Counted from the stretch's first letter, positions 3,995 to 20,495 are shown. The stretch: DNA of 25,699 nt from Candidatus Limnocylindrales bacterium (GCA_035604795.1 DATNHU010000106.1:1-25699); one strand, 5' to 3'. Translations and numbers: made by a program. The notes: generated by a model not told the origin, from the sequence alone.

Positions 3995-5497
3995 TTAGTG
4001 CAGCCCGACCGTCCCCTTGACCGAATCTATCAATTTCACCGAGTCGTACCCCACCCCATCCTTGAAAACGATTTCCACCTTCTCGATATCCGCAATTTGC
4101 GCCGAAGGATCGCCGTGAATCACCAAGAGGTCCGCGGCCTTTCCCTCCCCAATTGTTCCGGTTTGCCCGGAAAGTCCCAGGAATTCAGCGCCATTGGCCG
4201 TGGCAATATGAATCGCTTCCAGCGGAGTGAATCCCGCTTCCACCAGCAACTCTACCTCTCGCTGATCGCCGAACCCGGGCAAATCGCCACCACCTCCGGT
4301 CGGGTCCACTCCCGCGAGCAGCACGCCGCCCGCTTTCACGAAGTCGTGCTCAAACTGCATTTCCATTTTCAACAAAGTATTCCATGGCGTGTCGGCTTGC
4401 GCTGCGTTGCGAGCGCGCCCCTCGAGATACGAAACGCTTTCCTGCGGCAACAGGGCATCGAGCGGGCGCCGCATCCAGGCCATCGGCGGACGGTTGGGTA
4501 CAAAGGTTTCAAACACGGGGAGCGTGGACGTCACCGCCACGTGGTGCGCCACTAAATCGCGAATTGTTTGCTGGATTTCCGGACCTTCCACATCCATTTT
4601 CGCAATCGTGGCGAACGTCGTGGCTTGCGGTGTACACACATCCGGCTGCTTTCCAGGAACGAATTCCGTGTCCACCACCAATCCGTGTTCCAGGTTGTCA
4701 ATGCCCAGCGCCGCCGCTTCCCGGAATCCAATCGAGCAAAGATGCCCGGTAAGCTTGACCCCGTGGGCGTGTGCGGCGGCGATTGCCGCGGAAAGCTCCG
4801 CGCGCGTGATGTGCATATACGCTTTGAACGATCCCGCGCCGAGCCCGGCCCAGTAGTCCACCAACTGCCGCGCTTCGTCCGCGTTGGAAAGGATGTGCAT
4901 TTGCACGCCGGTGCCCGGCGGGCCTTCGAGGTACGGACCGGTCACATTAAGCTTCGGCCCAATCATCCTTCCGTCATCAATCATGGTCTTGAGGTTCAGG
5001 TCGGTATAGGTATCGAGGCTCCCCGTGGTCCGCGCGGTAGTCACGCCGCAGGCAAGATAAAGCCGGGGAGCAGTCACGGTAAGTTCGTTGTACTGTCCGC
5101 CTGCCGGATAAAACATGTGCTCGTGCATCCCGACCATGCCGGGCATCACCGAGTAGCCAGTGAAGTCCATGACCTGCGCGCCGGATGGAATGTTCGCTTT
5201 TGACGCGCTGCCCATCCAAGTAATTTCCCCCCCGCTAAGCACAATCGTCTGATCGTCGCGCGCCGCCGCCCCAGTGCCGTCAATCACTTTCACGTGCGTC
5301 AGCGCGATCAACGGAGCATCGGTCTTGATGTATTGCCGCAACTGCGCGCCGCGGCCGCCCTGACCCTGTTGCGCACTGCCTTGCTGGCCGCCCCGCTGTC
5401 CTGGTCCTGGCGTAGTTCCCCCCTGACCGCTTGCTTGCCAAGAGAATGCAAACGCAACAAGAGAGATGGTTGCAAGATTGCGAAGAATTTTGCGCAT
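3995..5497 (-). CDS. Secreted amidohydrolase-family (metal-dependent hydrolase) protein
   Basis: The start was moved to ATG 5497 because it has a GGAGA RBS and is followed by a signal peptide (MRKILRNLATISLVAFAFSWQASG) and a G/Q-rich linker. Motifs: PGMVGMHEH (HxH), FKAY, LTGH, EHG, LAGVD, GTIGEGKAADL. Confidence 0.88.
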   Translation of the reverse strand: MRKILRNLATISLVAFAFSWQASGQGGTTPGPGQRGGQQGSAQQGQGGRGAQLRQYIKTDAPLIALTHVKVIDGTGAAARDDQTIVLSGGEITWMGSASKANIPSGAQVMDFTGYSVMPGMVGMHEHMFYPAGGQYNELTVTAPRLYLACGVTTARTTGSLDTYTDLNLKTMIDDGRMIGPKLNVTGPYLEGPPGTGVQMHILSNADEARQLVDYWAGLGAGSFKAYMHITRAELSAAIAAAHAHGVKLTGHLCSIGFREAAALGIDNLEHGLVVDTEFVPGKQPDVCTPQATTFATIAKMDVEGPEIQQTIRDLVAHHVAVTSTLPVFETFVPNRPPMAWMRRPLDALLPQESVSYLEGRARNAAQADTPWNTLLKMEMQFEHDFVKAGGVLLAGVDPTGGGGDLPGFGDQREVELLVEAGFTPLEAIHIATANGAEFLGLSGQTGTIGEGKAADLLVIHGDPSAQIADIEKVEIVFKDGVGYDSVKLIDSVKGTVGLH

Positions 5498-5540
5498 GGT
5501 CAAATCTCCGATCGTCGAGATGGAATGTAATCCGGCGGGG

Positions 5541-5569
5541 AGAATAGTCTGCCGCGCGGACAAGCGCAA
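5541..5569 (-). promoter_or_regulatory. Putative sigma70 promoter of the amidohydrolase gene
   Basis: Minus strand reads TTGCGC (5569-5564), a 17-nt spacer, then TATTCT (5546-5541), about 45 nt upstream of ATG 5497. Confidence 0.55.
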
Positions 5570-5664
5570 GCTTTTGAACGGAATGCGTCAAAATCTGTCG
5601 CTGTTGGTGCATGGAGTCACTAGTCAGAAATTCATCCCACGGTTCTTAGGAGAGGCCAAAGTCC

Positions 5665-6807
5665 TTAGTGGGTCGGAGCTTCAGCTCCGCTTTTAAAACA
5701 TGGATCATGCAGTGGTCTTAACCCCGGAATGATTGCGATCCCACGTGACTCGCGCGCGGCGAAGTATCCAGTCTCAGCGAGCAATTCCGCATTCAAAATG
5801 GCCGCGCCCGCGGCGCCGCGAACTAAGTTGTGCGAAAGCAGCACCAGCCGAATATCCATCACATTGCATGCGCGCACGCGGCCTACGGTTACAGCCATGC
5901 CGCCCCCCGCATCGCGGTCGAGCCGCGTTTGCGGACGATCGGGTTCTTCACGAACTTCTATCGGCCGTGCAGGGGCCGAGGGCAACTTGAGGCGTTGCGG
6001 CTCGCCGGTAAATTCACGAAGCACCGCCGCAATGTCCGCGGGCGACGCTTTGTGCCGTAGTTTCAGTGAGACAGCTTCCATGTGGCCGTCAATCACCGGC
6101 ACACGGTGGCATTGAGCGCTGATGCGTATTTCCGTGGGCACAATGGCTCCATCGCGCAACGACCCCAGGATTTTTCGCGGCTCAGCCTCCAATTTTTCCT
6201 CTTCGCCGGAAATGTACGGGATCACGTTGTCCGTCGCGTCGAGTGAGGCAACGCCGGGATAGCCCGCGCCGGAAAGCGCCTGCATGGTGACCACGGATAA
6301 CGCTTCGATTCCAAACGCATCGCGAATCGGCTTGAGCGCAACCACCAGCCCCGCCGCCGAACAATTTGGATTCGTGGCGATGAATCCCGATGTGTAGCCG
6401 CGCCGCTCGCGCTGCACATCCACCAGCGCGCTGTGTTCCGGGTTCACCTCTGGCACCAGCAGCGGCACGTCGGGCGCCAACCTGTGATTGCTGCAGTTGC
6501 TGATCACCGCATATCCCGCGCGGGCAAATGCCTCCTCAACTGGGCCCGCCACCGAGGAATCCAGCGCAGAAAGACAAAAATCGCAATCCAGATTGGCTTC
6601 GAGCGGTTGCACTCGCAGCTCGCCGATTTCCATGGGCATCGGCTCGGCAATCCGCCAGCGCACAACTTCCGCATAGCGCTTTCCCGCGGAGCGCTCCGAA
6701 GCCGCCAGCGCGGTCACGCGAAACCACGGATGCGCGCGCAGGCGATGAATGATTTGCTGCCCGACCGTACCCGTTGCCCCCAACACGCCCACGCGGAAAG
6801 TTTTCAT
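5665..6807 (-). CDS. asd: Aspartate-semialdehyde dehydrogenase (archaeal/eukaryote-like subtype)
   Basis: GVLGATGTVGQ, HPWF...AASERSAGK.Y, catalytic NPNCS, MQALSGAGYPG, RVPVIDGH, SHNLVRGAAG. The ATG overlaps the TGA of the upstream kinase gene (ATGA at 6807-6804). Confidence 0.95.
   Translation of the reverse strand: MKTFRVGVLGATGTVGQQIIHRLRAHPWFRVTALAASERSAGKRYAEVVRWRIAEPMPMEIGELRVQPLEANLDCDFCLSALDSSVAGPVEEAFARAGYAVISNCSNHRLAPDVPLLVPEVNPEHSALVDVQRERRGYTSGFIATNPNCSAAGLVVALKPIRDAFGIEALSVVTMQALSGAGYPGVASLDATDNVIPYISGEEEKLEAEPRKILGSLRDGAIVPTEIRISAQCHRVPVIDGHMEAVSLKLRHKASPADIAAVLREFTGEPQRLKLPSAPARPIEVREEPDRPQTRLDRDAGGGMAVTVGRVRACNVMDIRLVLLSHNLVRGAAGAAILNAELLAETGYFAARESRGIAIIPGLRPLHDPCFKSGAEAPTH
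5668..5689 (+). repeat. REP-like palindrome GTGGGT-CGGAGCT-TC-AGCTCCG
   Basis: Perfect 7-bp inverted repeat (5674-5680 / 5683-5689) preceded by GTGG. It overlaps the last codons of asd. Confidence 0.5.
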
Positions 6808-7805
6808 CGAGCGGCTCTCCGCAGTTCGCTCCTGACTTCATTCCCTGGGGCGGGGCCGATGCGCGTACCGGGATGTTCGGGCCGAAATGTGTTGCGGATG
6901 CGCAAAGCGATATTTTTCTTCCGCAACGGTTCGATGGTCCTGGGGTGAAGTACCTTCGCGCCGCGTTCCGCCAAGTCCAGCGCTTCGTCATAGCTCAACT
7001 CGGTCAGCAGCGTGAATTCCCCGCTATGCTTTTTATCGGTAGAGCGAGGGTCGCGATCGTAAATGCCGTCCACATCGGTCCATAGGCAAACTTCATCAGC
7101 GTCCAGCGCGTCGGCCACAATCGCGGCGGAAAAATCGGAGCTGTTGCGTCCCAGCGTGGTCACTTCTCCGTCGGCCGTCGCGCCAATAAATCCGGTGACG
7201 ACGGGTACGACCCCCTTTTCCAAGAGTGGAAGCAGGATATCTCTTGCTCGCAGGCGGGTTTCTTCCCATATCGGCGTGGCATTCTGAAATTGTTCGTCGG
7301 TAACGATGAATCGTGATGCATCGACCGCCTCTGCCGGAACACCTTCCCACCTCAGCGCGCACGCGACCAATCGTGCGCTGGCGCATTCCCCATAAGAAAG
7401 CACGGCATCAACCCAGGATGCATCTTTGTCTTCGGTTCTCGTTTCGAGAGCCAGCGACCGGAAACACGTGCCGAGATTTTCCAGATCGCTCCAAATTTCC
7501 TGATCTTCGGGACACTCGGTTGTCGCATCGCCGCGGGCCACTCCTTTTTCAGCCGCGCTCAATTCCAGCGCAGCAAGCAATGCTCGGTGACGTGCCCGAA
7601 TCGCCCAAGCCTCATGAACCTCGTGCGCTGAGACGCCATTGCGCGCCAACTCGGTGAGGTGCACGAGCCGGTTCGTGACACCAGCGCACGCAGAGCACAC
7701 CACCACGGTCTGCTCATCGGCCGCAAGCTCGCGCACCAGTCGCGCGACATGAACTATCGCCGCTGCGTCCGCCAGCGATGACCCGCCAAACTTCAAGACC
7801 TGCAT
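6804..7805 (-). CDS. lysC: Aspartate kinase, catalytic domain only (no ACT domains), 333 aa
   Basis: The start was set at ATG 7805, which has a GGAGG RBS. Motifs: VLKFGGSSLAD, VVVCSA..GVTNRL, D.VLSYGE..S, PVVTGFIGAT, TTLGRNSSDFSA, WTDVDGIYDRDPR, LSYDEA.DLAERGAKVLHP. The ORF ends about 17 aa after the PGTRI end of the kinase domain. Confidence 0.9.
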   Translation of the reverse strand: MQVLKFGGSSLADAAAIVHVARLVRELAADEQTVVVCSACAGVTNRLVHLTELARNGVSAHEVHEAWAIRARHRALLAALELSAAEKGVARGDATTECPEDQEIWSDLENLGTCFRSLALETRTEDKDASWVDAVLSYGECASARLVACALRWEGVPAEAVDASRFIVTDEQFQNATPIWEETRLRARDILLPLLEKGVVPVVTGFIGATADGEVTTLGRNSSDFSAAIVADALDADEVCLWTDVDGIYDRDPRSTDKKHSGEFTLLTELSYDEALDLAERGAKVLHPRTIEPLRKKNIALRIRNTFRPEHPGTRIGPAPGNEVRSELRRAAR

Positions 7806-9106
7806 TGCACATCCTCCGAAACCGCCACCGCGCGCGCGAAGAGTTCGTGTTGAGCCGGCGCGGCGTGAAATCCCCCTATAGATTCGAGTTGAGCGCCGTG
7901 TTCGTCCTGGCACAGGAAAAGGACAGTGGGATTTTCTCCGCGCGCAGCCAGCGGCTCCACCAGCAGTCCGGCGATCTCCTCATCGTGCGCACGAACAAAT
8001 GCCAGCGCCGCGGATCCCGATCCGCTCAGGCACACGCCAAGCAATCCCGGATGACGCACCTCGAGACATTCCGCCAACCCCGGTACCGCAGGCACGCGAT
8101 AGGGCTGGTGCAACCGGTCGCGGAAAAATTCCTGCTGCAACGCGTCCAGCACGCCGCTGCCCGAAAAACATCGCGCCGCAAGCAAACTCGCGCGCTGCAA
8201 ATTGTGGACCACGTCCGCGTGCGAATATTCTTGCGGCAACACTGCGCGCGAGGCACGCGTAAGCATCGCCGTGGCCGGCACGATCGCCAGCATCCGCAAC
8301 TCCGGCGGCAATAGCGTCCGCGCGAAAATCACGCCCCCGCCCTCCTGGCTGGCGGCGAACACCAATCCGCCGTGGCAACAGGCGGCGGCATTGTCGGGAT
8401 GGCCCTCAATCTCCGCTGCCAGCGCCAGAATTTCTTCACGGTCCGCGGGTAAGTCAAGCAACGCCGAGCCCAGTAACAGCCCGCAAACCGTTGCCGCAGC
8501 GCTCGACCCCAGCCCCACCCCGACGGGAATCTCACTTTCAATTTCCAGGCGCGCGCCGGAAATTCTTGCGTTCTTCGCCGCGGTGAATCGCAGCATCCCT
8601 TGTGTCACCAGATTGGAAGCATCGTTGGGCACGCGTTCCGCGTTCGGCCCCCGGTAGCTCACCACAAATCCTGTATCGGGCGTAAGCAACGCTCGCGCGC
8701 GCAGCCGCAAATTCAGCGCAATCGCCGCGCAATCGAACGCGCAGCCAAGATTGGCCGAACTCGCGGGCGCCGAAGCTGCCACCCAGCGCGTGTCTGCCGC
8801 CGCGCTGGCCGAGGTTGCGCCGACAGAAGCAGCGCCGCCCGCGATGGAAGGCACCAGCAGCACCACATCGCCATCGCGGAATCTGTACGCGGCCCCGCCG
8901 AGGAAGCGAATGTCCTCATCATTCACATAAATGTTTACGAAGCGGCGCACTTCGCCGCGATCATCTCGGATGTGCCGCGAAATATCCGGAAATTGCGCCC
9001 CGAGTTGGTCGAGCAAATCCGGCAACTCCGCGGCAATCAGTTGCGCGGTCTGAGCGCCGCCCGTGAATTTGCGCAGCGCCGTGGGAATGTGGACGGTGAC
9101 CGGCAT
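7793..9106 (-). CDS. thrB: Fusion protein: MoaD/ThiS-family ubiquitin-like sulfur carrier (aa 1-91, ends IAGG) + Ala/Ser linker + homoserine kinase
   Basis: aa 1-91 (9106-8834) read MPVTVHIPTALRKFTGG...RRFVNIYVNDEDIRF...DGDVVLLVPSIAGG, a MoaD/CysO-type beta-grasp protein. There is no stop codon after GG. The linker AASVGATSASAAADT is followed by the ThrB motifs APASSANLG..FD, IPVGVGLGSSAA, EGHPDNAA, DRLHQPYR and LSGSG. RBS GGGGAGG lies upstream, 3 nt after the thrC-like stop. Confidence 0.9.
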   Translation of the reverse strand: MPVTVHIPTALRKFTGGAQTAQLIAAELPDLLDQLGAQFPDISRHIRDDRGEVRRFVNIYVNDEDIRFLGGAAYRFRDGDVVLLVPSIAGGAASVGATSASAAADTRWVAASAPASSANLGCAFDCAAIALNLRLRARALLTPDTGFVVSYRGPNAERVPNDASNLVTQGMLRFTAAKNARISGARLEIESEIPVGVGLGSSAAATVCGLLLGSALLDLPADREEILALAAEIEGHPDNAAACCHGGLVFAASQEGGGVIFARTLLPPELRMLAIVPATAMLTRASRAVLPQEYSHADVVHNLQRASLLAARCFSGSGVLDALQQEFFRDRLHQPYRVPAVPGLAECLEVRHPGLLGVCLSGSGSAALAFVRAHDEEIAGLLVEPLAARGENPTVLFLCQDEHGAQLESIGGFHAAPAQHELFARAVAVSEDVQCRS

Positions 9107-9109
9107 CGC

Positions 9110-10399
9110 TCACCTCCCCGCCACGGCGTGCTTGCCCGCGGCCGTTGCAGAAGTGAACGCGCCCGCCATCGCGCTCTCGAAATCGGCCAGCCGCGGGGGA
9201 ATCGGCTCGCTCAACTCGAACCGACCCGCGAGCGCGTCCGTCGTCTTCAGGCCATTGCCCGTGTTGCAGATGACCGTCGTATGGTTAGGCGCGATTCGCC
9301 CCTGCTCAATCAACTTCCGCGTGACGCCAAGCGTCACCCCGCCCGCCGTTTCGCCAAAAATCCCCTCGCTTTGCGCCAGCAGCTCGACGGCCTCCACAAT
9401 TTCCGAGTCGCTCACGTCTTCAGCCCATCCGCCGCTCTTCAAAATCGCCGCGCTGGCGTAATTTCCATCGGCGGGGTTTCCAATCGCCAGCGATCGCGCG
9501 ATGGTGTTCGGTTTCTGTGGATCAAACTCCGCCTTCCCATTTTTCACCGCGTCGGAAATCGGTGAGCACCCGGTCGCCTGGCCCCCGAAAAATTTCACTG
9601 ACTTGCCTTCCACCAGCCCCAACTCAGTCAACTCGCGGAACGCCTTGATAATTTTTCCAATCAGCGCCCCGCCGGCCATGGGCACCACCACGTTGTCCGG
9701 CAACCGCCACCCAAGCTGCTCGGCAATTTCGAACCCCACGGTTTTCGATCCCTCAGCGTAGTACGGCCGCAAATTCACATTCACGAATCCCCACGGATAG
9801 GAATCCGCGATCTGGGAGCACAGCCGGTTCACCTGATCGTAGTTCCCCGCGATGCGCACCAGCCGCGCGCCATAAACCTGCGTGTTCAAAATTTTTGCCG
9901 CTTCCAAATCCGCAGGCACAAAGATGCACGCCTGAAATCCTTCGCGCGCCGCCTGCGCCGCCACGGCGTTGGCCAGGTTGCCTGTGGACGAACAGCTCAC
10001 CACCTCATATCCAAATCGCCGCGCCGCCGTCAGCGCCACGGCCACCACGCGGTCCTTGAAGGAAAGCGACGGAAAGCAGACCGCGTCGTTCTTCACGTAA
10101 AGCTCGCTCACGCCCAACTGCTTCGCCAGGCGATTCGCGCGCACCAGCGGCGTGAATCCCACCGGCAAGTCGGAGCGGAAACCTTCCGGCAGCGGCAGCA
10201 ACTCCGCATAGCGCCACAAATTTCCCGCTCGCGCCGCGATGCTTTCGCGGGTTACGCGGCCCTTCAGCGCCGCGTAGTCGTAGGCCACCTCCAGCGGGGA
10301 AAGACATTCCTCGCAATACGACCGCGGAATATTTCCCCAGGTGCGCCCGCACTCCCGGCATCGCAATTGATAATGTTCGCTCACGGCCAGCCTCGGCAT
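9110..10399 (-). CDS. thrC: Threonine-synthase-family PLP enzyme (sulfur-carrier-associated type; candidate O-phosphohomoserine sulfhydrylase, MetM-like)
   Basis: N-terminal CRECG...CEEC, LWRYAELLP, GFTPLV, PLP-lysine motif SLSFKDRVV, SSTGNLANAVAA, VNVNLRPYYAEGSKT, TIARSLAIGNPADG, GIFGETAGG, TGNGLKT. The start is uncertain (ATG 10399 or GTG 10384); the TTG at 10507 lies in the riboswitch leader. Confidence 0.88.
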   Translation of the reverse strand: MPRLAVSEHYQLRCRECGRTWGNIPRSYCEECLSPLEVAYDYAALKGRVTRESIAARAGNLWRYAELLPLPEGFRSDLPVGFTPLVRANRLAKQLGVSELYVKNDAVCFPSLSFKDRVVAVALTAARRFGYEVVSCSSTGNLANAVAAQAAREGFQACIFVPADLEAAKILNTQVYGARLVRIAGNYDQVNRLCSQIADSYPWGFVNVNLRPYYAEGSKTVGFEIAEQLGWRLPDNVVVPMAGGALIGKIIKAFRELTELGLVEGKSVKFFGGQATGCSPISDAVKNGKAEFDPQKPNTIARSLAIGNPADGNYASAAILKSGGWAEDVSDSEIVEAVELLAQSEGIFGETAGGVTLGVTRKLIEQGRIAPNHTTVICNTGNGLKTTDALAGRFELSEPIPPRLADFESAMAGAFTSATAAGKHAVAGR

Positions 10400-10425
10400 T
10401 TTCCCGAATATTTGAATTGCGGATT

Positions 10426-10505
10426 GAAGGAACATCCGGCGATGCTCGATGCACGAATGCACCGGCATGCACGAAGACAAAATCGCTTCGCGCCGGAGTT
10501 CCTTC
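10426..10505 (-). promoter_or_regulatory. Long inverted repeat (15-bp stem, 1-nt bulge) in the operon leader
   Basis: GAAGGAAC-TCCGGCG pairs with CGCCGGA-(T)-GTTCCTTC (arms 10491-10505 and 10426-10441). The 49-nt interior contains a direct repeat ATGCACGAA at 10449-10457 and 10467-10475. Confidence 0.6.
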
Positions 10506-10539
10506 AAGTCTGGGGTGAGAAGATTTAGGGTGTTCGCCT

Positions 10540-10659
10540 AAATTCCCATGTCCCCCCGCGACTCGGGGCGGGAATTGGCACCGGATGAAGGGCATTGCAC
10601 CCCACCGGTTGCCGTGGCGTCGTCGGGCCCGTTCCCTCGGCCACTCTGCATGAAAACTC
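10540..10659 (-). ncRNA. SAM-I (S-box) riboswitch
   Basis: The minus strand reads gagttttcATGCAGAG-tggcc-GAGGGAacgGGCCCGAcGAcgcca-CGGCAACC...GGTGCCAATTCC-cgCCCCGagtcgCGGGG-ggaCATGggaattt. This matches the SAM-I layout: P1, J1/2 CAGAG, kink-turn P2, GCAACC/GGUGC P3 core, AAUUCC J3/4, P4. Confidence 0.92.
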
Positions 10660-10689
10660 AGGCCCTTGCGGCTTGAGCTTTACAATCCA

Positions 10690-10718
10690 ACCATACGAAA
10701 TGCCGGCGCGCGTGTCAA
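10690..10718 (-). promoter_or_regulatory. Sigma70 promoter of the riboswitch-led operon
   Basis: Minus strand reads TTGACA (10718-10713), a 17-nt spacer, then TATGGT (10695-10690), about 30 nt upstream of the riboswitch P1. Confidence 0.8.
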
Positions 10719-10793
10719 GCGTACCAGCCCTCCTCGCGGCTTGTCATTGGTTTAGGAATCCTTTCTCGTCGCGGCGCCCTTGCGCACGTTTTC

Positions 10794-10818
10794 GTAGGGA
10801 CGGATCTTTGACCCGCCC
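10794..10818 (+). repeat. REP-like element GTAG-GGACGGATC-TTT-GACCCGCCC
   Basis: GTAG tetranucleotide followed directly by an imperfect palindrome (2 A-C mismatches). Confidence 0.45.
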
Positions 10819-10838
10819 GCGGCGCCCGCCGCTGGTTT

Positions 10839-10905
10839 GTGTAGCTCAGGTCGAAGTGAAGACCTGAGGGTTCTCGCTGCCACTTGCGCAAATATGGCTG
10901 GCAAC
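10839..10905 (+). repeat. 67-bp GTAG-hairpin repeat, copy A
   Basis: gtgtag-CTCAGGTC-gaagtgaa-GACCTGAG-g, then 25 nt, then tggctggcaac. It aligns without gaps to the copies at 20575-20641 (+) and 20694-20760 (-). Confidence 0.8.
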
Positions 10906-10977
10906 TGTGCATTAGCTCATCACCAACTTTAGCTTCCAACTTATTTATTGCCATTGCCGCAAATGTAGAGTAACCAT

Positions 10978-11000
10978 GTAGCGCTGGGCTCGATCCCAGC
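10978..11000 (+). repeat. REP-like element GTAG-C-GCTGGG-CTCGAT-CCCAGC
   Basis: GTAG followed by a perfect 6-bp stem with a 6-nt loop. Confidence 0.45.
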
Positions 11001-11062
11001 AGATCCTTGCTTTTTCTCTCCATCGCGACTCTGCGTCCGCAGTCGAAGAAGGACTCGGCATC

Positions 11063-13510
11063 ATGGTAGGCGCTTGGCTGCGAACCTGGCGGCGGAGCCC
11101 GCTCATGACCTCGCAGTTCTCCGTCACCATCGCCGTGGGCATGGGAGCGGCGGCGGCGCTGGTCAGTCTGATGCTGGCGCTCGGTTATCAGCCGCTGCCG
11201 TATCGCGATCCCGGTCAGCTCGTAGCAGTTTGGGAGCAAACCGAGCCCGCTGCGGCGGTGATGGCGTTAGCCGGCCCTGATGTGGCGGATTTTTCCGATG
11301 CAACCCACACTATTTTCTCCTCACTTGGCGCCTTTACTCCCGCCTCGCCATTTTGGTTGATTGACGGCGGAGGCGCGACAGAAATTAACGAAGGCTTCAT
11401 CCAGGCGAGCATGTTCAACGATCTGGGAATACGCCCCGTTTTGGGGCGCGCTGTACGGCTTGACGATAAAACTTACGGCGACAACGCGACTCATCCCGTT
11501 TGGATCGGCGAACACCTTTGGCAGACCCGGTACGGTGGCAGTTCATCGGTGATTGGCGAGACTGTTTGGAGTGCCTCGGACGCGTCGGGGAGCTACAAGT
11601 CGCCCCTACAAATTGTCGGCGTCCTTCCCGCGGGCGTGGGCATCCCGCTTCCATTCCTTATCAGGGAGCCTGACCTGTGGATTCTGATTCCGCCGAACAT
11701 TGCGAACCGTCCCCGGCAGGGCAATTTGTTCTTCGGGGTGGGGCGGCTCCGCCCCGGAGTCAGCGTGGAGCAGGCCGAGGCCGCATTAACCGTGGTAACG
11801 AAACGCATTGGGCAGATCTATAGTTTCGAGCGGCAGAATCGCCCCGTGGTGCAGGGCCTGGACGCGATAGCACACGGCCCCGCGCGGCAGACCATGGGAC
11901 TGCTCGTATCAGGTGTGGGGCTGGTGTTCCTGGTGGCCTGCGTTAATCTCGCCGTCCTCATGGGAGCGGAAGGCAGGAGACGGCGCCGCGAGATAGCCAT
12001 TCGTGTTGTACTGGGCGCAAGCCGCTGGCGCCTGTGGAGCGATGTAGCGGCGGAAAAATGCTTACTCACACTTCTATCGCTGGGACTGGGCGTGTGGTTT
12101 GCCTCTGCGCTGCTGCGAGTGCTGGCATGGTTGGTACCGGCAGCCGGACTTGGCCAGGCCTTGCAGGTTCCGCCGCCTTTGAATCTCTCCGTTCTGCTCG
12201 CCTTTGCGACTTTCGCCCTGGCCGCATCGTTGATTTGGTCGGCGCTGCTGGTGGCCGCAGCGAATGGACCGGGAGCTTCGCGTGCGCTTGCATCAGCGGG
12301 CGGCGCAACGGCCTACACCGGCCTTAGCGACACCGGTCCCGGGGCCGGCCGCTGGCGTCTCGTTCTGTTGGCAGCACAGGCAGGGATAGGAATTTGCCTG
12401 CTGGCGGCAGCAGCGCTCACGGCCAAGACCTACGCTACACTCTCGGCCGCCAATCTCGGGCCAGAGCCGAGCCGCACGGTGACTATGTCGCTTGGAATGC
12501 GAGACTGGGTCCAGCTTTCCGACGCCCAGGGAGATGAACTCAATCGGCAAGTTCAATCCCGGCTGGAGCGCCTGCCGGGCACACGGGCGATCGCATTGGT
12601 GAGCCATTTTCCACCGGACAACCGTCCCATGTCTTTTGTTAAGCAGAGCGATGCGACCGGAACTTTGCGTGATACCATCCAGCCCTTTTCTGTTACGCCC
12701 AGCTATTTCCGCACTCTCGGGATTCCGATCCTGTTCGGCCGCAACTTTGACAACACTGACCACCGCGGCGGCGAGCCGGTGGCAATCATTAGTTTGGATA
12801 TGGCCCAGCGGAACTGGGACTCGCCCGAGCAGGCCGTGGGTTCGCGGATCGCTGCCGGGTCAAAACTGCAGCTCCATTACAAGATCGTCGGCGTGGCCGC
12901 GAATTTCACGGGCTTCTGGTCTCAGCATCCGGTTCCGATGGTCTATGTGCCCGACACGCAGTACGACGACTGTTGCAGCGCTGTGATTTTGCGCACGGAT
13001 TCCTCAGCGAGCGCCGTCACCGTTCTCGCGCCACAGTTGTTGGACGGAATGGCGAACCCTCTGGATATTTCGGATGTTACGACTATGCAGGCGCGCTGGC
13101 AGGCCACATTGACCCGCCCGCTGGCCCGCATGGCAGGCATGCTTCTGCTGGGGTTGCTCGGCCTGGGACTGAGCATCCAGGGCGTGTACGCGGTTGCTGC
13201 AGGAATAGTGGCAGCGCGCGGGCATGAGCTTGCGGTCCGTGCAGCACTCGGCGCGCCTCCGGGCCGGCTGGCTTGGAATGTGACGCGTGCGCTGGTCCTC
13301 GCGGTTTTGGTGGGCGCGCTGTTTGGCGCGGCGGCTTCCCGCGCCATGCATCCCCTGATGGAGCACTGGCTTGGCCCGGTGGCCGTTTGGCAGGCGGAGC
13401 CCATCGCCGTAGCCATCGTGCTGCTCGCGCTCACTGCCGCTGCGGGTTGCTACGCCCCCGCGCGCGCCGCCGCTCGTTCCAACCCTGCCGACGTCCTGCG
13501 CCAGGGCTGA
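11063..13510 (+). CDS. Divergent ADOP-type (MacB/FtsX duplicated) ABC transporter permease
   Basis: QPLPYRDPGQLVAVWE, LGIRPVLGR, IVGVLP, LACVNLAVLM...RRREIAIRVVLGASRWRL, V.P.YFRTLGIPILFGRNF, IVGVA.N, G.Y.V......R.HELAVRAALGA, YAPARAAARSNPADVLRQG. AAGGA RBS. No ATPase gene adjacent. Confidence 0.85.
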   Translation: MVGAWLRTWRRSPLMTSQFSVTIAVGMGAAAALVSLMLALGYQPLPYRDPGQLVAVWEQTEPAAAVMALAGPDVADFSDATHTIFSSLGAFTPASPFWLIDGGGATEINEGFIQASMFNDLGIRPVLGRAVRLDDKTYGDNATHPVWIGEHLWQTRYGGSSSVIGETVWSASDASGSYKSPLQIVGVLPAGVGIPLPFLIREPDLWILIPPNIANRPRQGNLFFGVGRLRPGVSVEQAEAALTVVTKRIGQIYSFERQNRPVVQGLDAIAHGPARQTMGLLVSGVGLVFLVACVNLAVLMGAEGRRRRREIAIRVVLGASRWRLWSDVAAEKCLLTLLSLGLGVWFASALLRVLAWLVPAAGLGQALQVPPPLNLSVLLAFATFALAASLIWSALLVAAANGPGASRALASAGGATAYTGLSDTGPGAGRWRLVLLAAQAGIGICLLAAAALTAKTYATLSAANLGPEPSRTVTMSLGMRDWVQLSDAQGDELNRQVQSRLERLPGTRAIALVSHFPPDNRPMSFVKQSDATGTLRDTIQPFSVTPSYFRTLGIPILFGRNFDNTDHRGGEPVAIISLDMAQRNWDSPEQAVGSRIAAGSKLQLHYKIVGVAANFTGFWSQHPVPMVYVPDTQYDDCCSAVILRTDSSASAVTVLAPQLLDGMANPLDISDVTTMQARWQATLTRPLARMAGMLLLGLLGLGLSIQGVYAVAAGIVAARGHELAVRAALGAPPGRLAWNVTRALVLAVLVGALFGAAASRAMHPLMEHWLGPVAVWQAEPIAVAIVLLALTAAAGCYAPARAAARSNPADVLRQG

Positions 13511-14964: not shown

Positions 14965-17421
14965 TTATTCGTGTCTCAGCGCGACCATAGGATCCACGCG
15001 CATCGCGCGCCGAGCCGGGACATAGCAAGCCAGCAGCGCCACGCCAAATAAAATAAACGCCACGGCGCTGAAAGTAAGCGGATCAGTTCCGCTGACGCCA
15101 AAGAGCAACGCGGCCATCAGTCGCGTCAGCACCAGCGCTGCGGCAACGCCTAGGCCCACGCCAATTAGCGAAAGTTTCGCCCCCTGCCCCAGGATGAGCC
15201 GCAATACGTCGCGTTGCTGCGCGCCCAGCGCCAAGCGGACTCCGATCTCGCGCGTCTGCTGCGTAACGGCGTAAGAAACCACGCCGTAGATTCCCAGACA
15301 CGAAAGCAAAAGCGCCAGCGCGGAAAAAATTCCCAGGAGGATCATGGAGAGTCTCCGGGCCGCGAACGAATTGGACACGATTTCATCCAATGTTTCCACA
15401 CTGTAGATCACTTCCCTGGGATCGAGTTGACGAATCGTCCGGCGGAGCGGTTCCACGGTAGCGGTTGGATCGCCTGTGGTTCGCAACACGACCGCTACAT
15501 TTGCAGCAACCAGCGGCGTCATGTTGGAAGGAAGCTGCATGAAAGGATAGAAAAATTGCGCCTCGATGGCCGATTTTGCGTCCGCGTCCAGCCCCCACTG
15601 TTTCACGTGGCCGACGACGCCAACAATTTCCACCGGCACGCCGAAGAGTGCCAGATTGACGCGCTTCCCGAGGGGATCTTCGTTTGGGAAGTAGGTTCGT
15701 GCGAAAACATCGTCAATCACGATGACCACGGGAGAATTTTCATTGTCCTCATCCCTGATCCATCGCCCGCGCTGGAGCGTGATTCCCATGGCCTGCTGAT
15801 AGCCGGATTCAACCAGATAAAACATTGCCTGATTCATTTCGTTTATATTCGCAGGCTTGGGCTGGCCCTCCCTCCAGAACGGTAACGTGGAATCATGTTT
15901 CATGGGTCGCGAGCCAAGCGTAATCGTCACCGCCTCCACACCCGGGATGGATGCGACCTTTCTGTCGAATTCGCGCAACCGTGCACGCGTTTCGGCCGCG
16001 CTGGTCGAAGAGTTGGCCGGCAGCGATAAATTGAATGTGATGGCGTGGCTGGGATTGAAGCCGGGATTGACTGTCCAAAGCGCCGCCAGGCTGCGAATCA
16101 TCAGTCCGGCGCCAACAAGTAAGACCAGGGCCATGGCTACTTCGCCGGCCACGAAGATTCCTTGCAGGCGATGGCGGGCGCCGCTGCCGCCGCGACCGCT
16201 TTCCTTCAATATTTCTTGCAAGTCCGTGCGCGATGTTTTCAACGCTGGAGCGAGGCCAAAAATGATTCCGGCAAACAGCGACAAGGCCATTGTGAAAATC
16301 AATACACGCGCATCCAGTGAGATTTCGTTGGAACGCGGCAACGCGGCGGGCAAAGTCTGGATAAGCGCCCGGGTCGCCCAAGCCGCCATCAAAAGCCCCA
16401 GCGCCCCGCCCAGGCCGGCAAGCAGAATGCTTTCGGTGAGAAGCTGGCGAATCACGCGACCCTGGCTGGCGCCCATTGCCGCGCGAATTGCAAACTCGCG
16501 CGACCTCCCCGCCGACCGCGCCAATAAAAGATTGGCCACATTTACGCACGCAATCAACAGCACAAATCCGACCGCGCCCAGAAGCACCAGCAGAAATGGC
16601 CGAACATTGCCGACCATATCGTCCTTCATGGAAGCCAGCGTGATGCCAATGCCCTTATCGGCCTCCGGAAATGCCACCGCGAGATTTTGGGCCACGCCGT
16701 CCATGTCCGCTTTCGCTTGCGAGAGCGGCACGCCGGGCTTGAGCCGCCCGATCGCGTGTGCGCTCATATCAATTCTGCGGTCGCGAAAGGAAGGATCGCT
16801 CCACTGGCCGATGGGCGTGTACACATCGCGATCGTGGCCATAGAAACTGAAGGTCGCGGGAATCACGCCGACGATGATGTACGGTGTGCCATTCAGAATG
16901 ACCGGTTTCCCCACAATCCCGGGCGAAGAACCGAATTTGCGTTTCCAAAACCCCTCGCTGAGAATCACCACCGGTCCCACGCCCACTTGATCTTCTTCGG
17001 GCCGAAATGACCGGCCGAGAATCGGGTTCACTCGAAGGGTGGAAAAAAAGTCCGCGGAAATCATGTAGCCGCTCACACGTTCGGCCAGATCAGCGCCGGT
17101 GAAATTAAAATCCTGATTCCGGTACATGGCCATGGAGGAAAACGTTTTGGACTCGCGTTGCCAATCAAGAAAATTCAGGTAGGTAATCGGGCCCGCATTC
17201 GCCCCTGGAGTTTTTCCATTGATCGAAACCAGTTCACCAGCCTGCGGATAAGGCAGAGGGTTCAACAGGACGCCGTTCACTATGGAAAACAGCGCTGTAT
17301 TTGCGCAAATTCCCAATGCCAGCGTCAGGATGGCAACCGCAGAGAAGGCCGCGTTCTTGCGCAGCGTCCGGACGCCAAACCGAACGTCTTGCCAACACGT
17401 TTCGAGCGAAGTGAAAGTCAT
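14965..17421 (-). CDS. ADOP-family duplicated orphan ABC permease
   Basis: WQDVRFGVRTLRKNAAFSAVAILTLALGICANTALFS, LLIACVNVANLLLARSAGRSREFAIRAAMGA, EIVGVVGHVKQ, GIYGVVSYAVTQQTREIGVRLALGA, YVPARRAMRVDPMVALRHE. Confidence 0.95.
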   Translation of the reverse strand: MTFTSLETCWQDVRFGVRTLRKNAAFSAVAILTLALGICANTALFSIVNGVLLNPLPYPQAGELVSINGKTPGANAGPITYLNFLDWQRESKTFSSMAMYRNQDFNFTGADLAERVSGYMISADFFSTLRVNPILGRSFRPEEDQVGVGPVVILSEGFWKRKFGSSPGIVGKPVILNGTPYIIVGVIPATFSFYGHDRDVYTPIGQWSDPSFRDRRIDMSAHAIGRLKPGVPLSQAKADMDGVAQNLAVAFPEADKGIGITLASMKDDMVGNVRPFLLVLLGAVGFVLLIACVNVANLLLARSAGRSREFAIRAAMGASQGRVIRQLLTESILLAGLGGALGLLMAAWATRALIQTLPAALPRSNEISLDARVLIFTMALSLFAGIIFGLAPALKTSRTDLQEILKESGRGGSGARHRLQGIFVAGEVAMALVLLVGAGLMIRSLAALWTVNPGFNPSHAITFNLSLPANSSTSAAETRARLREFDRKVASIPGVEAVTITLGSRPMKHDSTLPFWREGQPKPANINEMNQAMFYLVESGYQQAMGITLQRGRWIRDEDNENSPVVIVIDDVFARTYFPNEDPLGKRVNLALFGVPVEIVGVVGHVKQWGLDADAKSAIEAQFFYPFMQLPSNMTPLVAANVAVVLRTTGDPTATVEPLRRTIRQLDPREVIYSVETLDEIVSNSFAARRLSMILLGIFSALALLLSCLGIYGVVSYAVTQQTREIGVRLALGAQQRDVLRLILGQGAKLSLIGVGLGVAAALVLTRLMAALLFGVSGTDPLTFSAVAFILFGVALLACYVPARRAMRVDPMVALRHE

Positions 17422-17478: not shown

Positions 17479-20145
17479 TCATTCGTGGCGCAGCGCAACC
17501 ATGGGGTCCACACGCATCGCGCGCCGCGCGGGAATGTAGCAGGCCAGCAGCGCGACGGCCGCAAGCAACGCGGCAACAATCACAAGCGTGAGCGGGTCCG
17601 TCGGTTTGATCTCAAAGAGCAGGCTCTTCAACAGTCGTGTGACACCCAATGCGCCAACGATCCCTACCACGACGCCGATCGAGGTCAGCCGCATCCCGTG
17701 TTTCAAGACCAGGCGCACCAAATCCGCCGGGCCCGCGCCAAGCGCCACGCGAATGCCAAACTCGTGCACCCTTTGAGACGTTGCGTAGGACACCACACCA
17801 TAAACTCCGATTCCCGCCACGATCAGGGCAACAGCGGCGAAGATTCCCAGCATCAGCATGTCAAATCTTCGCGCACTCATCGAATTGGAGAGACGCTGCT
17901 CCATCGTGCTCACGTCGTATACCGGGAGATTAGGATCCAATTGCGACACCGCGTGTTTCAATTCAGAGGCTACTCCCGCCGGATCAGATTCGGTGCGGAG
18001 CGCTACCTGGATGTATTGCAATCGGCTCTGGTCCAGAGGGACATACACCTGTGGCGGCGCATCCGTTTCGAGGCCCTCGTGCCTCTCGTCACCCACGACT
18101 CCGACGATTTGCATCCAGGGTGGATCGGGGCCACCGCCCATGCGGATGGATTGTCCCAGCGGATTGGCATTTCCCACGTATTGGGTTGCAAACGCGCGGT
18201 TGATGATCGCAACGCCCGGCGCATCTGCTCCGTCCCGTGCATCAAACGCGCGTCCCTCCAATTGCGGAATGCCGAGCGTACGAAAGTAATCCGCGCTTGC
18301 GGCAATGACGGGGAACATGGGAAGCACTCTGGAAGGCGCTTGTGCTTGACCCATCACGCGTATAACGGATTTGGTGTCGTACACCATCATCGGCAGGCTG
18401 TTACCCACGGCCGCCATCTTCACGCCCGGCAAGCCCTTTGCGGCATCCACCAATCGGGCGACAAATGCGATTTGTTGCTCCCGCTTTCCATAATTGATGG
18501 ACGACAGCTTGATTTGGGCGACCAGAAGATTCCGCGCATCGAACCCGGGCGAAACGTCCATCAGCCTCACGAAGCTGCTGATGAGCAAACCAGCGCTCGC
18601 CATCACCATCAACGCCATGGCCAACTCGCATACCATCAGGACTCCTCGTAACCGGACACGGGCCGGCGTGGTGCCCGAACTTCCGTGGCCTTCCTTTAGA
18701 GGTTGATTCAAGTCGGTATGAAATGTCGCGAACACCGGGGCCAAACCGAAAAGGATTCCAGTGAACACGGCAACCAACACAGTGAAGCCAAGAACCCGGT
18801 TATCCATCACCACCATCTCGGGATGGGGAATTCCAGGTGGAGCAATCGCGCGGAACAATTGAATCCTTTCGCGCGCAACGAATAATCCGAAGCCCGCAGA
18901 AATCACCGCCAGCAACACATTTTCCGTGATCAATTGGCGGACCAGCCGGAATTTTCCTGCGCCCAAAGCCATGCGCACGGAAAATTCCCGTAGCCGAACG
19001 GATGACCGTGCCAGTTGCAAATTCGCCACGTTTGCGCAACTGATGAGAAGCAACAGGGAGACAGCTCCAAGCAGAATCAAGAGGTCGGCGCGGGTATCGC
19101 CCGCAAGTTTGTCATGCAGATTCACCAGACGCACTTCCACGCTGCTCGCGATGCCGGCAATTTCTGCGGGATATTGCTTCGCGATCTGCCGGTTCATAAT
19201 CTTCAACTCGGCAAGCACCCGGTCCGAATGGGTCCCCGGTTTCACTCGTCCCAGGACACTCACAATCTGCTGAGGAGTTTGAGGGCTCCAATCCGGTTTG
19301 GCGGGCAGCTTTAGCGGCACAAACAGATCAGGGCTCACATCATTGTCGGGGAAGCGGAAATCAGGGGACATAACTCCCACAACCCTATAAGCGTGATTGT
19401 CCACCTGAACGGACCGATCCAGTATTCTGGGATCTCCGCCGTAGCGCAGCTCCCAGAGGTGGTGGCCCAGGATGGCGACGGGCGGCCCACCCGCGCGATC
19501 TTCTTCATCTACAAAGTCGCGGCCGATTGCCGGTGTGACTCCAAGAAGGGGGAAAAAATTCGCCGTAATCCCCGACACGGCTGCTCTTTCCGGATCGCCG
19601 TCACCGGTCAAATTATTTGCGGAGTCGTTGTAAGCGGCCATCTCCTCGAACACGGTGTTCTGTTCCCGCCAGGCAAGGAAATCGGAACTGCCAACCAAGG
19701 TCCCATTAAACTGAGGCACAAAATCAGAGATCCAGTACAGCCGCGCGGAATCCCTGTAGGGCAGAGGCCGCAGCAGCACGGCATTTACCACGCTGAAAAT
19801 CGCGGTGTTCGCGCCGATGCCCAGCGCGAGGGTAAGGATCGCGGTGGCCGTGAAGCCGGGGTTCTTGCGCAACATTCGCGCGCCGTAGCGCAAGTCTTGC
19901 CAAAAATCTTCCAGCCAGTTGAAGGTCCACATTTCGCGGGTAACCTCGCGCACTGAATTTGCGTTACCGATACTCCGCCGCGCGGCGTAGTGAGCCTCTC
20001 GCACTCCAGACCCGCTCGCGGCGAATTTCTCCTCGCGCTTGGCCAGATGGAATTGCAGCTCTTCCTCGAGATCACGGTCATGCTGCTTGCGCTTCGCGAG
20101 CGCTTTGATCCGCAGCCAGGTTCGCGTGAGCCATTCCTGCAACAC
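17479..20145 (-). CDS. ADOP-family duplicated orphan ABC permease with N-terminal permease-prefix segment
   Basis: The start was set at GTG 20145, with RBS GAGGAGG directly after the padR stop. Motifs: DRDLEEELQFHL...AARRSIGN...REMW, WQDLRYGARMLRKNPGFTATAILTLALGIGANTAIFS, ISCANVANLQLAR, IPARRAMRVDPMVALRHE. Confidence 0.95.
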   Translation of the reverse strand: MLQEWLTRTWLRIKALAKRKQHDRDLEEELQFHLAKREEKFAASGSGVREAHYAARRSIGNANSVREVTREMWTFNWLEDFWQDLRYGARMLRKNPGFTATAILTLALGIGANTAIFSVVNAVLLRPLPYRDSARLYWISDFVPQFNGTLVGSSDFLAWREQNTVFEEMAAYNDSANNLTGDGDPERAAVSGITANFFPLLGVTPAIGRDFVDEEDRAGGPPVAILGHHLWELRYGGDPRILDRSVQVDNHAYRVVGVMSPDFRFPDNDVSPDLFVPLKLPAKPDWSPQTPQQIVSVLGRVKPGTHSDRVLAELKIMNRQIAKQYPAEIAGIASSVEVRLVNLHDKLAGDTRADLLILLGAVSLLLLISCANVANLQLARSSVRLREFSVRMALGAGKFRLVRQLITENVLLAVISAGFGLFVARERIQLFRAIAPPGIPHPEMVVMDNRVLGFTVLVAVFTGILFGLAPVFATFHTDLNQPLKEGHGSSGTTPARVRLRGVLMVCELAMALMVMASAGLLISSFVRLMDVSPGFDARNLLVAQIKLSSINYGKREQQIAFVARLVDAAKGLPGVKMAAVGNSLPMMVYDTKSVIRVMGQAQAPSRVLPMFPVIAASADYFRTLGIPQLEGRAFDARDGADAPGVAIINRAFATQYVGNANPLGQSIRMGGGPDPPWMQIVGVVGDERHEGLETDAPPQVYVPLDQSRLQYIQVALRTESDPAGVASELKHAVSQLDPNLPVYDVSTMEQRLSNSMSARRFDMLMLGIFAAVALIVAGIGVYGVVSYATSQRVHEFGIRVALGAGPADLVRLVLKHGMRLTSIGVVVGIVGALGVTRLLKSLLFEIKPTDPLTLVIVAALLAAVALLACYIPARRAMRVDPMVALRHE

Positions 20146-20153
20146 GCCTCCTC

Positions 20154-20495
20154 CTAAGTCGTCTGCATCACGCGCGCGATGGCGGAAGTCATCTTCCGCC
20201 AGTGTTCCGATTCCGCGGCCAGTGCTGTGCGCCCGCGCGTGGTGAGGGAGTAATACTTGGCGCGCCGGTTGTTTTCGGAGGCACCCCATTCGGAAGCGAG
20301 CAGCCCGCGCAGCTCCAGCCGGTGCAGCGCCGGATAGAGCGCTCCTTCCTCCACTTTCAGAACTTCCGAGGAGGTTTCCGCAATCCATTCCGCCACGGCG
20401 TAGCCGTGCCTCGGGCCGTGCGCCAGCGACTTCAGCACCAGCATGTCCAGCGTTCCCTGCACCAGATCGCCCTGCTTGTCGTGAGCGTTACCCAT
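20154..20495 (-). CDS. PadR-family transcriptional regulator, acidobacterial type
   Basis: MGNAHDKQGDLVQGTLDMLVLKSL..GPRHGYAVAEWI...LKVEEGALYPALHRLE..GLLASEWGASENNRRAKYYSLT..GR..L..E...W. It lies directly upstream of an ADOP permease, the canonical pairing. Confidence 0.95.
   Translation of the reverse strand: MGNAHDKQGDLVQGTLDMLVLKSLAHGPRHGYAVAEWIAETSSEVLKVEEGALYPALHRLELRGLLASEWGASENNRRAKYYSLTTRGRTALAAESEHWRKMTSAIARVMQTT

Follow-up and report, generated by a model that had tools for sequence, protein, structure and literature searches.

Here we describe an operon of an acidobacterium that probably encodes a version of the MetM/MetO pathway, a homocysteine synthesis controlled by S-adenosylmethionine (SAM). 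The operon occupies positions 5665-10718, on the minus strand throughout, of a 25,699-nucleotide stretch of DNA (GCA_035604795.1 DATNHU010000106.1:1-25699; hereafter the window) deposited under the name Candidatus Limnocylindrales bacterium. It consists of a promoter-like site, a SAM-I aptamer, a metM-like gene, an in-frame fusion of a MetO-like sulfur carrier to homoserine kinase (carrier::thrB), an aspartate kinase gene and asd. From the coordinates, metM and the fusion gene are separated by a 3-nt gap, the fusion and kinase genes overlap by 13 nt, and the kinase gene and asd overlap by 4 nt (ATGA). Each of these elements and junctions had been listed in an earlier interpretation made from the DNA alone (the sequence-only reading), and each was verified. 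The same reading suspected an acidobacterial host, and the organism is indeed an acidobacterium, its close homologues being named Candidatus Acidoferrales/Acidiferrales. The window corresponds to contig C106 in a 329-contig, 2.1-Mb metagenome-assembled genome (MAG; labelled G000). Because this MAG is only 56% complete, claims of absence rest on its relatives, labelled G001-G030.

Homocysteine synthesis by MetM/MetO, mislabelled as threonine synthesis, is already known biology. Hasebe et al. (2024, Appl Environ Microbiol 90:e01247-24) reported the route in Streptomyces albulus, with MetM as a threonine-synthase homologue behind a SAM riboswitch, MetO as a sulfur carrier, and Mec and MoeZ as helpers; the route is also included in GapMind 2026 (PMC13759103). 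The window resembles this system in having a ThrC-family pyridoxal 5'-phosphate (PLP) enzyme behind a SAM riboswitch and an adjacent ThiS/MoaD carrier with Gly-Gly, in probably having the JAMM protease and the E1-rhodanese encoded elsewhere in the genome, and in carrying genes mislabelled 'threonine synthase'. It differs in belonging to another phylum and in three further features that we consider distinctive. The carrier and homoserine kinase form a single in-frame MetO::ThrB polyprotein, or the carrier is extended by a tail of 16-60 residues in relatives; thrB, a kinase lacking ACT domains and asd are added behind the riboswitch, none of which occurs within 4 kb in the 80 actinobacterial loci described below; and canonical homoserine dehydrogenase appears to be lacking lineage-wide, being undetected in 27 of 31 related genomes.

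In the route that we propose, aspartate kinase and Asd would produce aspartate semialdehyde, a further enzyme would reduce it to homoserine, and the kinase half of the fusion would convert homoserine into O-phosphohomoserine. MetM would then swap the phosphate of O-phosphohomoserine for sulfur from the C-terminal thiocarboxylate of MetO, yielding homocysteine. The carrier would have to be cut after Gly-Gly, the likely protease being the JAMM protein (Mec) of a separate cysM-mec-cysO-moeZ cluster, and then be activated by the E1-rhodanese MoeZ. When SAM is plentiful, the SAM-I riboswitch would lower expression.

The MetM-like enzyme and its riboswitch

The open reading frame (ORF) of the metM-like gene (9110-10399, minus strand) encodes a ThrC-family PLP enzyme, matching PALP with 220 bits and TIGR00260 with 268 bits against a cut-off of 167, and the protein has an N-terminal Cys4 zinc ribbon (CxxC...CxxC). 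Upstream of it, the SAM-I riboswitch aptamer (10543-10656, minus strand) matches Rfam RF00162 over model positions 1-108 of 108 with 73 bits (gathering score 44.4, E 1.4e-15) and is the single Rfam family in the whole window. From its sequence it is predicted to bind SAM and to control expression in response to it. In all 12 acidobacterial loci scanned, the orthologous PLP gene has a SAM riboswitch upstream, and this recurrence, together with the presence of the carrier::thrB fusion in 42 clusters (see below), indicates that the arrangement is not due to chance.

A scan of species-representative genomes found 80 actinobacterial loci encoding a protein 50-57% identical to the window enzyme. A SAM riboswitch lies directly upstream in 15 of the 16 loci scanned for it, and a MoaD-like (MetO) gene lies directly downstream in about 45 of the 80, including Actinacidiphila (Streptomycetaceae); the genomes with these loci keep a separate canonical ThrC. 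Riboswitch, PLP gene and MetO gene thereby stand as reported for metM/metO of S. albulus. We used the riboswitch-metM-metO ortholog of Actinacidiphila, which is 55% identical to the window enzyme, as a proxy for the characterised MetM of S. albulus (UniProt A0A059WBP2).

The sequence-only reading had named a phylogeny of the PLP enzyme as a check on its interpretation, and the trees place the enzyme with the riboswitch- and MetO-linked genes, apart from canonical ThrC. In an IQ-TREE analysis of 62 sequences, the riboswitch-linked acidobacterial and actinobacterial sequences were split with 100% support in the Shimodaira-Hasegawa-like approximate likelihood ratio test (SH-aLRT) from a ThrC side comprising canonical ThrC, the in-operon ThrC of two relatives (G021 and G022) and PRK08197-type paralogs; a FastTree analysis of 130 sequences agrees with this split. 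Ten positions are specific to the riboswitch-linked clade, defined as at least 90% conserved within it and shared by at most 10% of the ThrC side, and all ten are present in the window protein. Two of them, Arg211 and Tyr214, fall in the segment VNVNLRPYY; Asn and Arg take their places on the ThrC side. From ThrC structures we take this segment to bind the substrate phosphate, with the ThrC-side Arg presumably contacting it. NCBIfam PRK08197 was considered as the MetM family and rejected: the actinobacterial MetM-like and window proteins score about 260-315 bits against its cut-off of 303, which one of them exceeds, while separate paralogs reach 540-580 bits.

Clade membership, the riboswitch, the carrier linkage and the predicted interface between MetM and the carrier (see below) support the identification of the thrC-like gene as a MetM-type enzyme instead of a housekeeping threonine synthase, with a predicted activity as an O-phosphohomoserine-dependent homocysteine synthase. 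On the same grounds, the earlier proposal that the operon serves methionine and not threonine was largely right, except for its 'self-contained' supply. The expected mislabelling is also seen, as databases call these genes 'threonine synthase' and 'homoserine kinase'. The MetM/MetO route would thus reach the Acidobacteriota, where pipelines apply the same two labels, so that metabolic reconstructions of these common soil bacteria would miss methionine synthesis.

The carrier::kinase fusion

The second ORF (7793-9106, minus strand) starts 3 nt past metM and encodes the MetO-like carrier as residues 1-91 (8834-9106; PF02597, 41 bits, the ThiS/MoaD match covering residues 5-91), ending in VPSIAGG. 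Past the diglycine, a variable linker of about residues 92-105 (8792-8833), delimited from model confidence and the alignment of clusters, forms the presumed cleavage region. The remainder is a GHMP-type homoserine kinase domain (7793-8791), which matches TIGR00191 with 215 bits against an equivalog cut-off of 168 as well as PF00288 and PF08544. Compared with stand-alone actinobacterial MetO proteins, the carrier domain shows 36-50% identity. Most of those proteins stop exactly at ...AVAGG, whereas the diglycine of the window protein is internal to the fusion and all acidobacterial carriers run on past ...PSIAGG, either into a tail of 16-60 residues or through a short linker into an entire ThrB; stand-alone carriers within the same genus also have tails past the diglycine.

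The 120 best relatives of the fusion protein in the database, clustered at 90% identity, include 42 independent clusters in which ThiS and GHMP domains are both present, with 47-100% identity to the window protein. The motif VP[SA]IAGG is kept in 41 of the 42, while the linker following it varies in length and sequence, indicating that the fusion is real and that the diglycine is under selection. A database protein of 421 residues (P0388) annotated with PALP and GHMP-kinase domains was also noticed, which may be a MetM/ThrC-ThrB fusion or a gene-call artefact.

An AlphaFold model of the fusion, built on an alignment of 33 sequences, has two confident domains joined by residues 88-104, which are predicted to be disordered, with a predicted local distance difference test (pLDDT) score below 50. 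We also modelled the PLP enzyme together with carrier residues 1-91 and obtained interaction scores (ipSAE, interaction prediction score from aligned errors) of 0.72, 0.72 and 0.71, compared with 0.00 for the best of three controls; in calibration, the mark was attained by 55 of 80 solved complexes and by 3 of 110 mismatched pairs. In the predicted interface, MetM takes part with its zinc ribbon (residues 16 and 27-35) and the carrier with its C-terminal tail (residues 85-90). This model supports, and does not prove, binding of the fused carrier domain by the PLP enzyme.

By analogy with MoaD-MoaE fusions, the fusion should need cleavage after Gly-Gly. MoaX of M. tuberculosis needs cleavage for activity (PMC4326299), and DRJAMM cuts the Deinococcus MoaD-MoaE fusion (DR2607), baring a C-terminal Gly (PMC8832034). 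As in these two proteins, where the cut at Gly-Gly is required, an enzyme is synthesised with a ubiquitin-like sulfur carrier as its N-terminal portion. In MoaX and DR2607, however, the carrier is joined to its own partner subunit, whereas in the window it is joined to homoserine kinase, which acts earlier in the pathway and makes no use of the carrier. The fusion would accordingly be a natural bacterial carrier-enzyme polyprotein with a partner other than the carrier's own enzyme, and a simple test system for JAMM processing.

A different explanation is that the fused MoaD domain is never released and acts as a permanent dock that tethers homoserine kinase to MetM, so that O-phosphohomoserine is channelled while the sulfur comes from sulfide or CysO. 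The predicted binding of the carrier domain to MetM would suit such a dock, eight relatives have an unfused ThrB and a carrier-less operon, a separate CysO carrier is present, and sulfide served to mimic MetM activity in vitro according to a study of a Microcystis homologue (PMC12172450). Nevertheless, we regard this explanation as unlikely. Retention of the diglycine in nearly all fusion clusters despite the varying linker is to be expected only where the diglycine has to become a free end, and the stand-alone carriers of the same genus have tails past the diglycine that would need trimming. In the models, moreover, the carrier tail lies inside the interface with MetM and the linker is predicted to be disordered and accessible, and JAMM-cut MoaD-MoaE fusions provide a precedent for release (PMC8832034).

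Two other carrier systems lend themselves to comparison with a released MetO. The CysO/CysM/Mec/MoeZ system of Mycobacterium tuberculosis likewise combines an O-phospho amino acid and a carrier thiocarboxylate with a fold-type-II PLP enzyme and JAMM and E1-rhodanese helpers, but it uses the CysM subfamily, phosphoserine as substrate and cysteine as product, whereas the window enzyme is ThrC-like; an orthologous-looking cysM-mec-cysO-moeZ cluster occurs in relatives and as fragments in the MAG itself. In the HcyS/HcyD/HcyF/MetY system of Wolinella succinogenes, a protein thiocarboxylate also leads to homocysteine and a JAMM protease trims the carrier, but the substrate is O-acetylhomoserine and the enzyme is of the MetY type (fold-type I).

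Aspartate-pathway genes and the source of homoserine

The aspartate kinase gene (6804-7805, minus strand) encodes 333 residues comprising only the catalytic domain. It matches PF00696 with 168 bits and TIGR00657 with 260 bits (cut-off 209) over profile positions 5-286 of 442; no match to the ACT regulatory domains was found in the operon kinase, and its stop codon overlaps the start of asd. The kinase is 37% identical to a full-length, ACT-bearing kinase of the relative G003. The asd gene (5665-6807, minus strand) is of the archaeal/Gram-positive 'EA' type (TIGR00978, 442 bits, cut-off 301) and is a distinct paralog from the asd of dap clusters, with 51% identity to the dap-cluster asd of G003 and 53% to a second asd on another contig of the same MAG (C73). 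On that 2.85-kb contig (L120:392-2849), the second asd adjoins an ACT-bearing kinase, and both share only about 50% identity with their counterparts in the dap cluster of G003; they may be divergent paralogs, or the contig may be mis-binned.

The order PLP gene, carrier::ThrB, aspartate kinase, Asd is found in the window, G005 and G015. In G007 the PLP gene is followed by a stand-alone carrier, aspartate kinase and Asd, and in G017 and G018 by a stand-alone carrier only, so that the linkage between PLP gene and MoaD-like gene exists in three versions (a carrier fused to ThrB, a stand-alone carrier with aspartate kinase and Asd, and a stand-alone carrier only). Eight genomes have the PLP gene with an unfused ThrB, aspartate kinase and, in some, Asd, and no carrier. 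Two members of another family, G021 and G022, have a fusion-type operon with a full-length aspartate kinase and an extra canonical ThrC. In these two (G022 L025:4350-10980; G021 L028:4030-10662), the SAM-riboswitch operon encodes MetM, MetO::ThrB, a 472-residue full-length aspartate kinase, canonical ThrC and Asd, so that homoserine dehydrogenase is the only enzyme missing between aspartate and both threonine and homocysteine.

In G011 (99% complete, 2 contigs) and G005, no aspartate kinase other than the ACT-less one was found, while a second, ACT-bearing kinase exists in G003, G004 and the window's genome, the G003 copy lying in a dapE-asd-lysC-dapB-dapA-dapD cluster. Likewise, the operon asd is the sole asd found in G004 and G005, only a non-operon asd is found in G003 and G011, and both kinds occur in the window's genome. 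Most of the genus has no GHMP-type homoserine kinase but the operon thrB. Because the kinase, asd or thrB is a sole copy in several relatives, the operon is often the main trunk of the aspartate pathway. The upstream supply line proposed in the sequence-only reading is therefore present as genes, but is not simply an extra one dedicated to methionine.

Nor is the operon 'self-contained', as it lacks genes for homoserine dehydrogenase (hom), the E1 enzyme (MoeZ) and the JAMM protease (Mec), the last two belonging to a separate cluster. In G003 (L124:5020-8026), cysM, a JAMM protease gene, cysO (its product ending in GGC) and a gene for a ThiF-rhodanese E1 form a cluster. In the MAG, this cysM-mec-cysO-moeZ cluster is split by contig ends and only fragments are present: contig C89 (1-1111) carries cysM and the first 29 residues of the JAMM protein at its end, and contig C270 (3-266) carries the last 88 residues of MoeZ at its start. 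JAMM genes are found in four of the five fusion-bearing genomes.

Homoserine dehydrogenase (PF00742) scores above the cut-off in only 4 of the 31 related genomes (G007, G008, G010 and G013), three of which (G007, G008 and G013) also have a canonical thrB elsewhere. A credible PF00742 match is absent from 13 of 14 high-quality related genomes and present in all 14 control genomes; the genome search pre-filters candidates, so a very divergent homoserine dehydrogenase could escape it. A full-sensitivity HMMER search of the 56%-complete MAG with a profile from four in-genus enzymes also gave no match. Most of the hom-less relatives still encode homoserine kinase, MetM and a ThrC-family enzyme, and the lack of a recognisable canonical dehydrogenase beside these homoserine-consuming enzymes is a concrete gap in a core pathway. 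The alternative kinase HomK (TIGR02535) was found in none of the 31 genomes. Five genomes of family f3 (G020, G023, G024, G026 and G030; 87-100% complete) have no detectable GHMP homoserine kinase, HomK or homoserine dehydrogenase, and they keep a PRK08197-type 'threonine synthase' gene beside pilus-like genes (loci L151, L153 and L154).

Candidates for a substitute of homoserine dehydrogenase were sought through PF03447, which returned only Gfo/Idh/MocA-type proteins and a 2,4-diaminopentanoate dehydrogenase-like protein. In G003 the latter has 337 residues and is encoded about 10 kb from the operon (L132:11156-12169; NF040740, 255 bits against a cut-off of 400). Within the genus its sequences share 84-94% identity, a stronger conservation than that of MetM, and its gene lies near the operon in several genomes. 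We rejected it as a general substitute, as hom-positive genomes also have it and G021 and G022 do not. The neighbourhoods of the PRK08197 paralogs, with AlaX and pilus-like genes, were uninformative in this respect.

The sequence-only reading had further predicted that metA/metX and metB/metY would be lacking and that a separate canonical thrC would be present. In four relatives that are 98-100% complete, neither MetA nor a MetX equivalog was found (the best MetX score being 152 bits against a cut-off of 500), and their MetX-like proteins belong to other NCBIfam families, in keeping with the first half of the prediction. A metB/metY-type enzyme is possible, however, as each of the four has two to three Cys/Met gamma-family PLP enzymes, none of which attains any equivalog cut-off. 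They also have exactly one further ThrC-family gene each, of the PRK08197 type and beside an AlaX-like gene, and the MAG has a PRK08197-type gene on contig C58 and a partial second on C125. A second ThrC-family gene thus exists elsewhere in the genome, but only as a divergent PRK08197-type paralog, which is found in relatives without any thrB as well.

The gamma-family enzymes raise the alternative that O-phosphohomoserine is consumed by a plant-type cystathionine gamma-synthase, i.e., by transsulfuration, with the ThrC-like protein serving another role. Their best matches are models of cystathionine gamma-synthase or gamma-lyase, and the near-complete relatives lack a detectable acyl-homoserine-forming enzyme. 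This alternative appears very improbable to us, since the enzymes stay below every equivalog cut-off, none of them is linked to the operon, and the riboswitch on the ThrC-like gene, its carrier linkage and its clade membership would be left unexplained.

Several observations weigh against the assignment of the operon to MetM/MetO-type homocysteine synthesis. The main unexplained point is the source of homoserine, which leaves one pathway step without an assigned enzyme. The link to S. albulus MetM runs through Streptomycetaceae and other actinobacterial orthologs, defined by context, and through published descriptions. In the eight relatives with a carrier-less operon, sulfide or the CysO carrier may serve. 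In some relatives the sole kinase or asd found lies in the operon, which is hard to reconcile with plain repression of all its genes by SAM. Canonical ThrC is absent from most genomes of the genus, so that threonine, too, might have to come from the riboswitch-linked enzyme, and a cyanobacterial (Microcystis) protein 51.6% identical to MetM is reported to have threonine synthase and deaminase activity in vitro (PMC12172450).

The last three observations also speak for another interpretation, in which the cell relies on the riboswitch-linked enzyme as its threonine synthase, or this enzyme makes both threonine and homocysteine, and the operon is a general trunk of the aspartate family. The enzyme exceeds the cut-off of TIGR00260, a thrC model; the genomes of the window's genus that lack canonical ThrC are left with the PRK08197 paralog, a gene that relatives without thrB and hom possess as well; the operon thrB, kinase or asd is the sole copy found in several near-complete relatives; and canonical ThrC lies within the same operon in G021, G022 and G009. 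We nonetheless find this interpretation rather unlikely. Repression of a threonine synthase by SAM makes no regulatory sense, and the clade and its ten diagnostic residues are common to MetO-linked actinobacterial genes whose genomes keep canonical ThrC. In addition, position 214 is Tyr instead of the ThrC-side Arg, the predicted carrier interface appears specific in the models, and the PRK08197 paralog, which falls on the ThrC side of the tree, passes the NCBI threonine synthase model. The MetM/MetO-type assignment is the one that we consider probable.

More tentatively, and as a possibility that we do not hold to be probable, the order as a whole may make O-phosphohomoserine for both methionine and threonine without canonical homoserine dehydrogenase, and free its carrier from a carrier-kinase polyprotein by JAMM cleavage. 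If so, the hom-less route would call for an unrecognised reductase of aspartate semialdehyde, which might be one of the operon enzymes, and JAMM release from the polyprotein would be a mechanism resembling that of ubiquitin precursors, tying the amounts of carrier and kinase to 1:1.

Leader, promoter and neighbouring genes

Between the aptamer and metM lies a conserved, structured leader (10385-10542, minus strand), assigned as the expression platform from its fold (z = -4.2) and conservation. Its conserved segments UCUCACCCC and CCGC...ACUCGG are complementary, across 11 relatives, to the 3' strands of the aptamer helices P4 and P1; no covariation was seen in these pairings among the 11 relatives because the columns are invariant. 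A search between the aptamer and the start codon found no terminator-like site, the leader having no U-tract terminator. The terminator-less leader, the conserved platform and the separate ribosome-binding site of each gene favour control mainly of metM translation, which the riboswitch probably gates. The fusion gene has its own GGAGG 7 nt ahead of its ATG and the kinase gene its own GGAGG upstream, and a site of the GGAGG/GGAGA type precedes every gene downstream of metM. The true start of metM may be a GTG at 10384, preceded by GAGG 8 nt upstream, which would give a protein of 424 residues and agrees with a 424-residue database gene call (P0001).

A sigma-70-like promoter candidate (TTGACA-17-TATGGT; 10690-10718, minus strand) is the sole match in 5400-11100 and lies in a fitting position 34 nt upstream of the aptamer. 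On its own this candidate is weak, because 1.3 such matches are expected by chance in that interval. No internal sigma-70-like promoter was found inside the operon.

The remainder of the window is unrelated to the operon and encodes MacB/FtsX permeases, an amidohydrolase, FabV, MutS2 and a GH2 enzyme. The amidohydrolase gene (3995-5569, minus strand; 524 residues) comes after asd, at a distance of 95 nt and in the same orientation. We considered it as an operon member and rejected it: it follows the operon in five other genomes of the genus, is absent from several loci and is probably a mere neighbour. On the other side, three large genes for MacB/FtsX-type permeases lie in a 10-kb stretch adjoining the operon, at 11063-13510 on the plus strand and at 14965-17421 and 17479-20388 on the minus strand.

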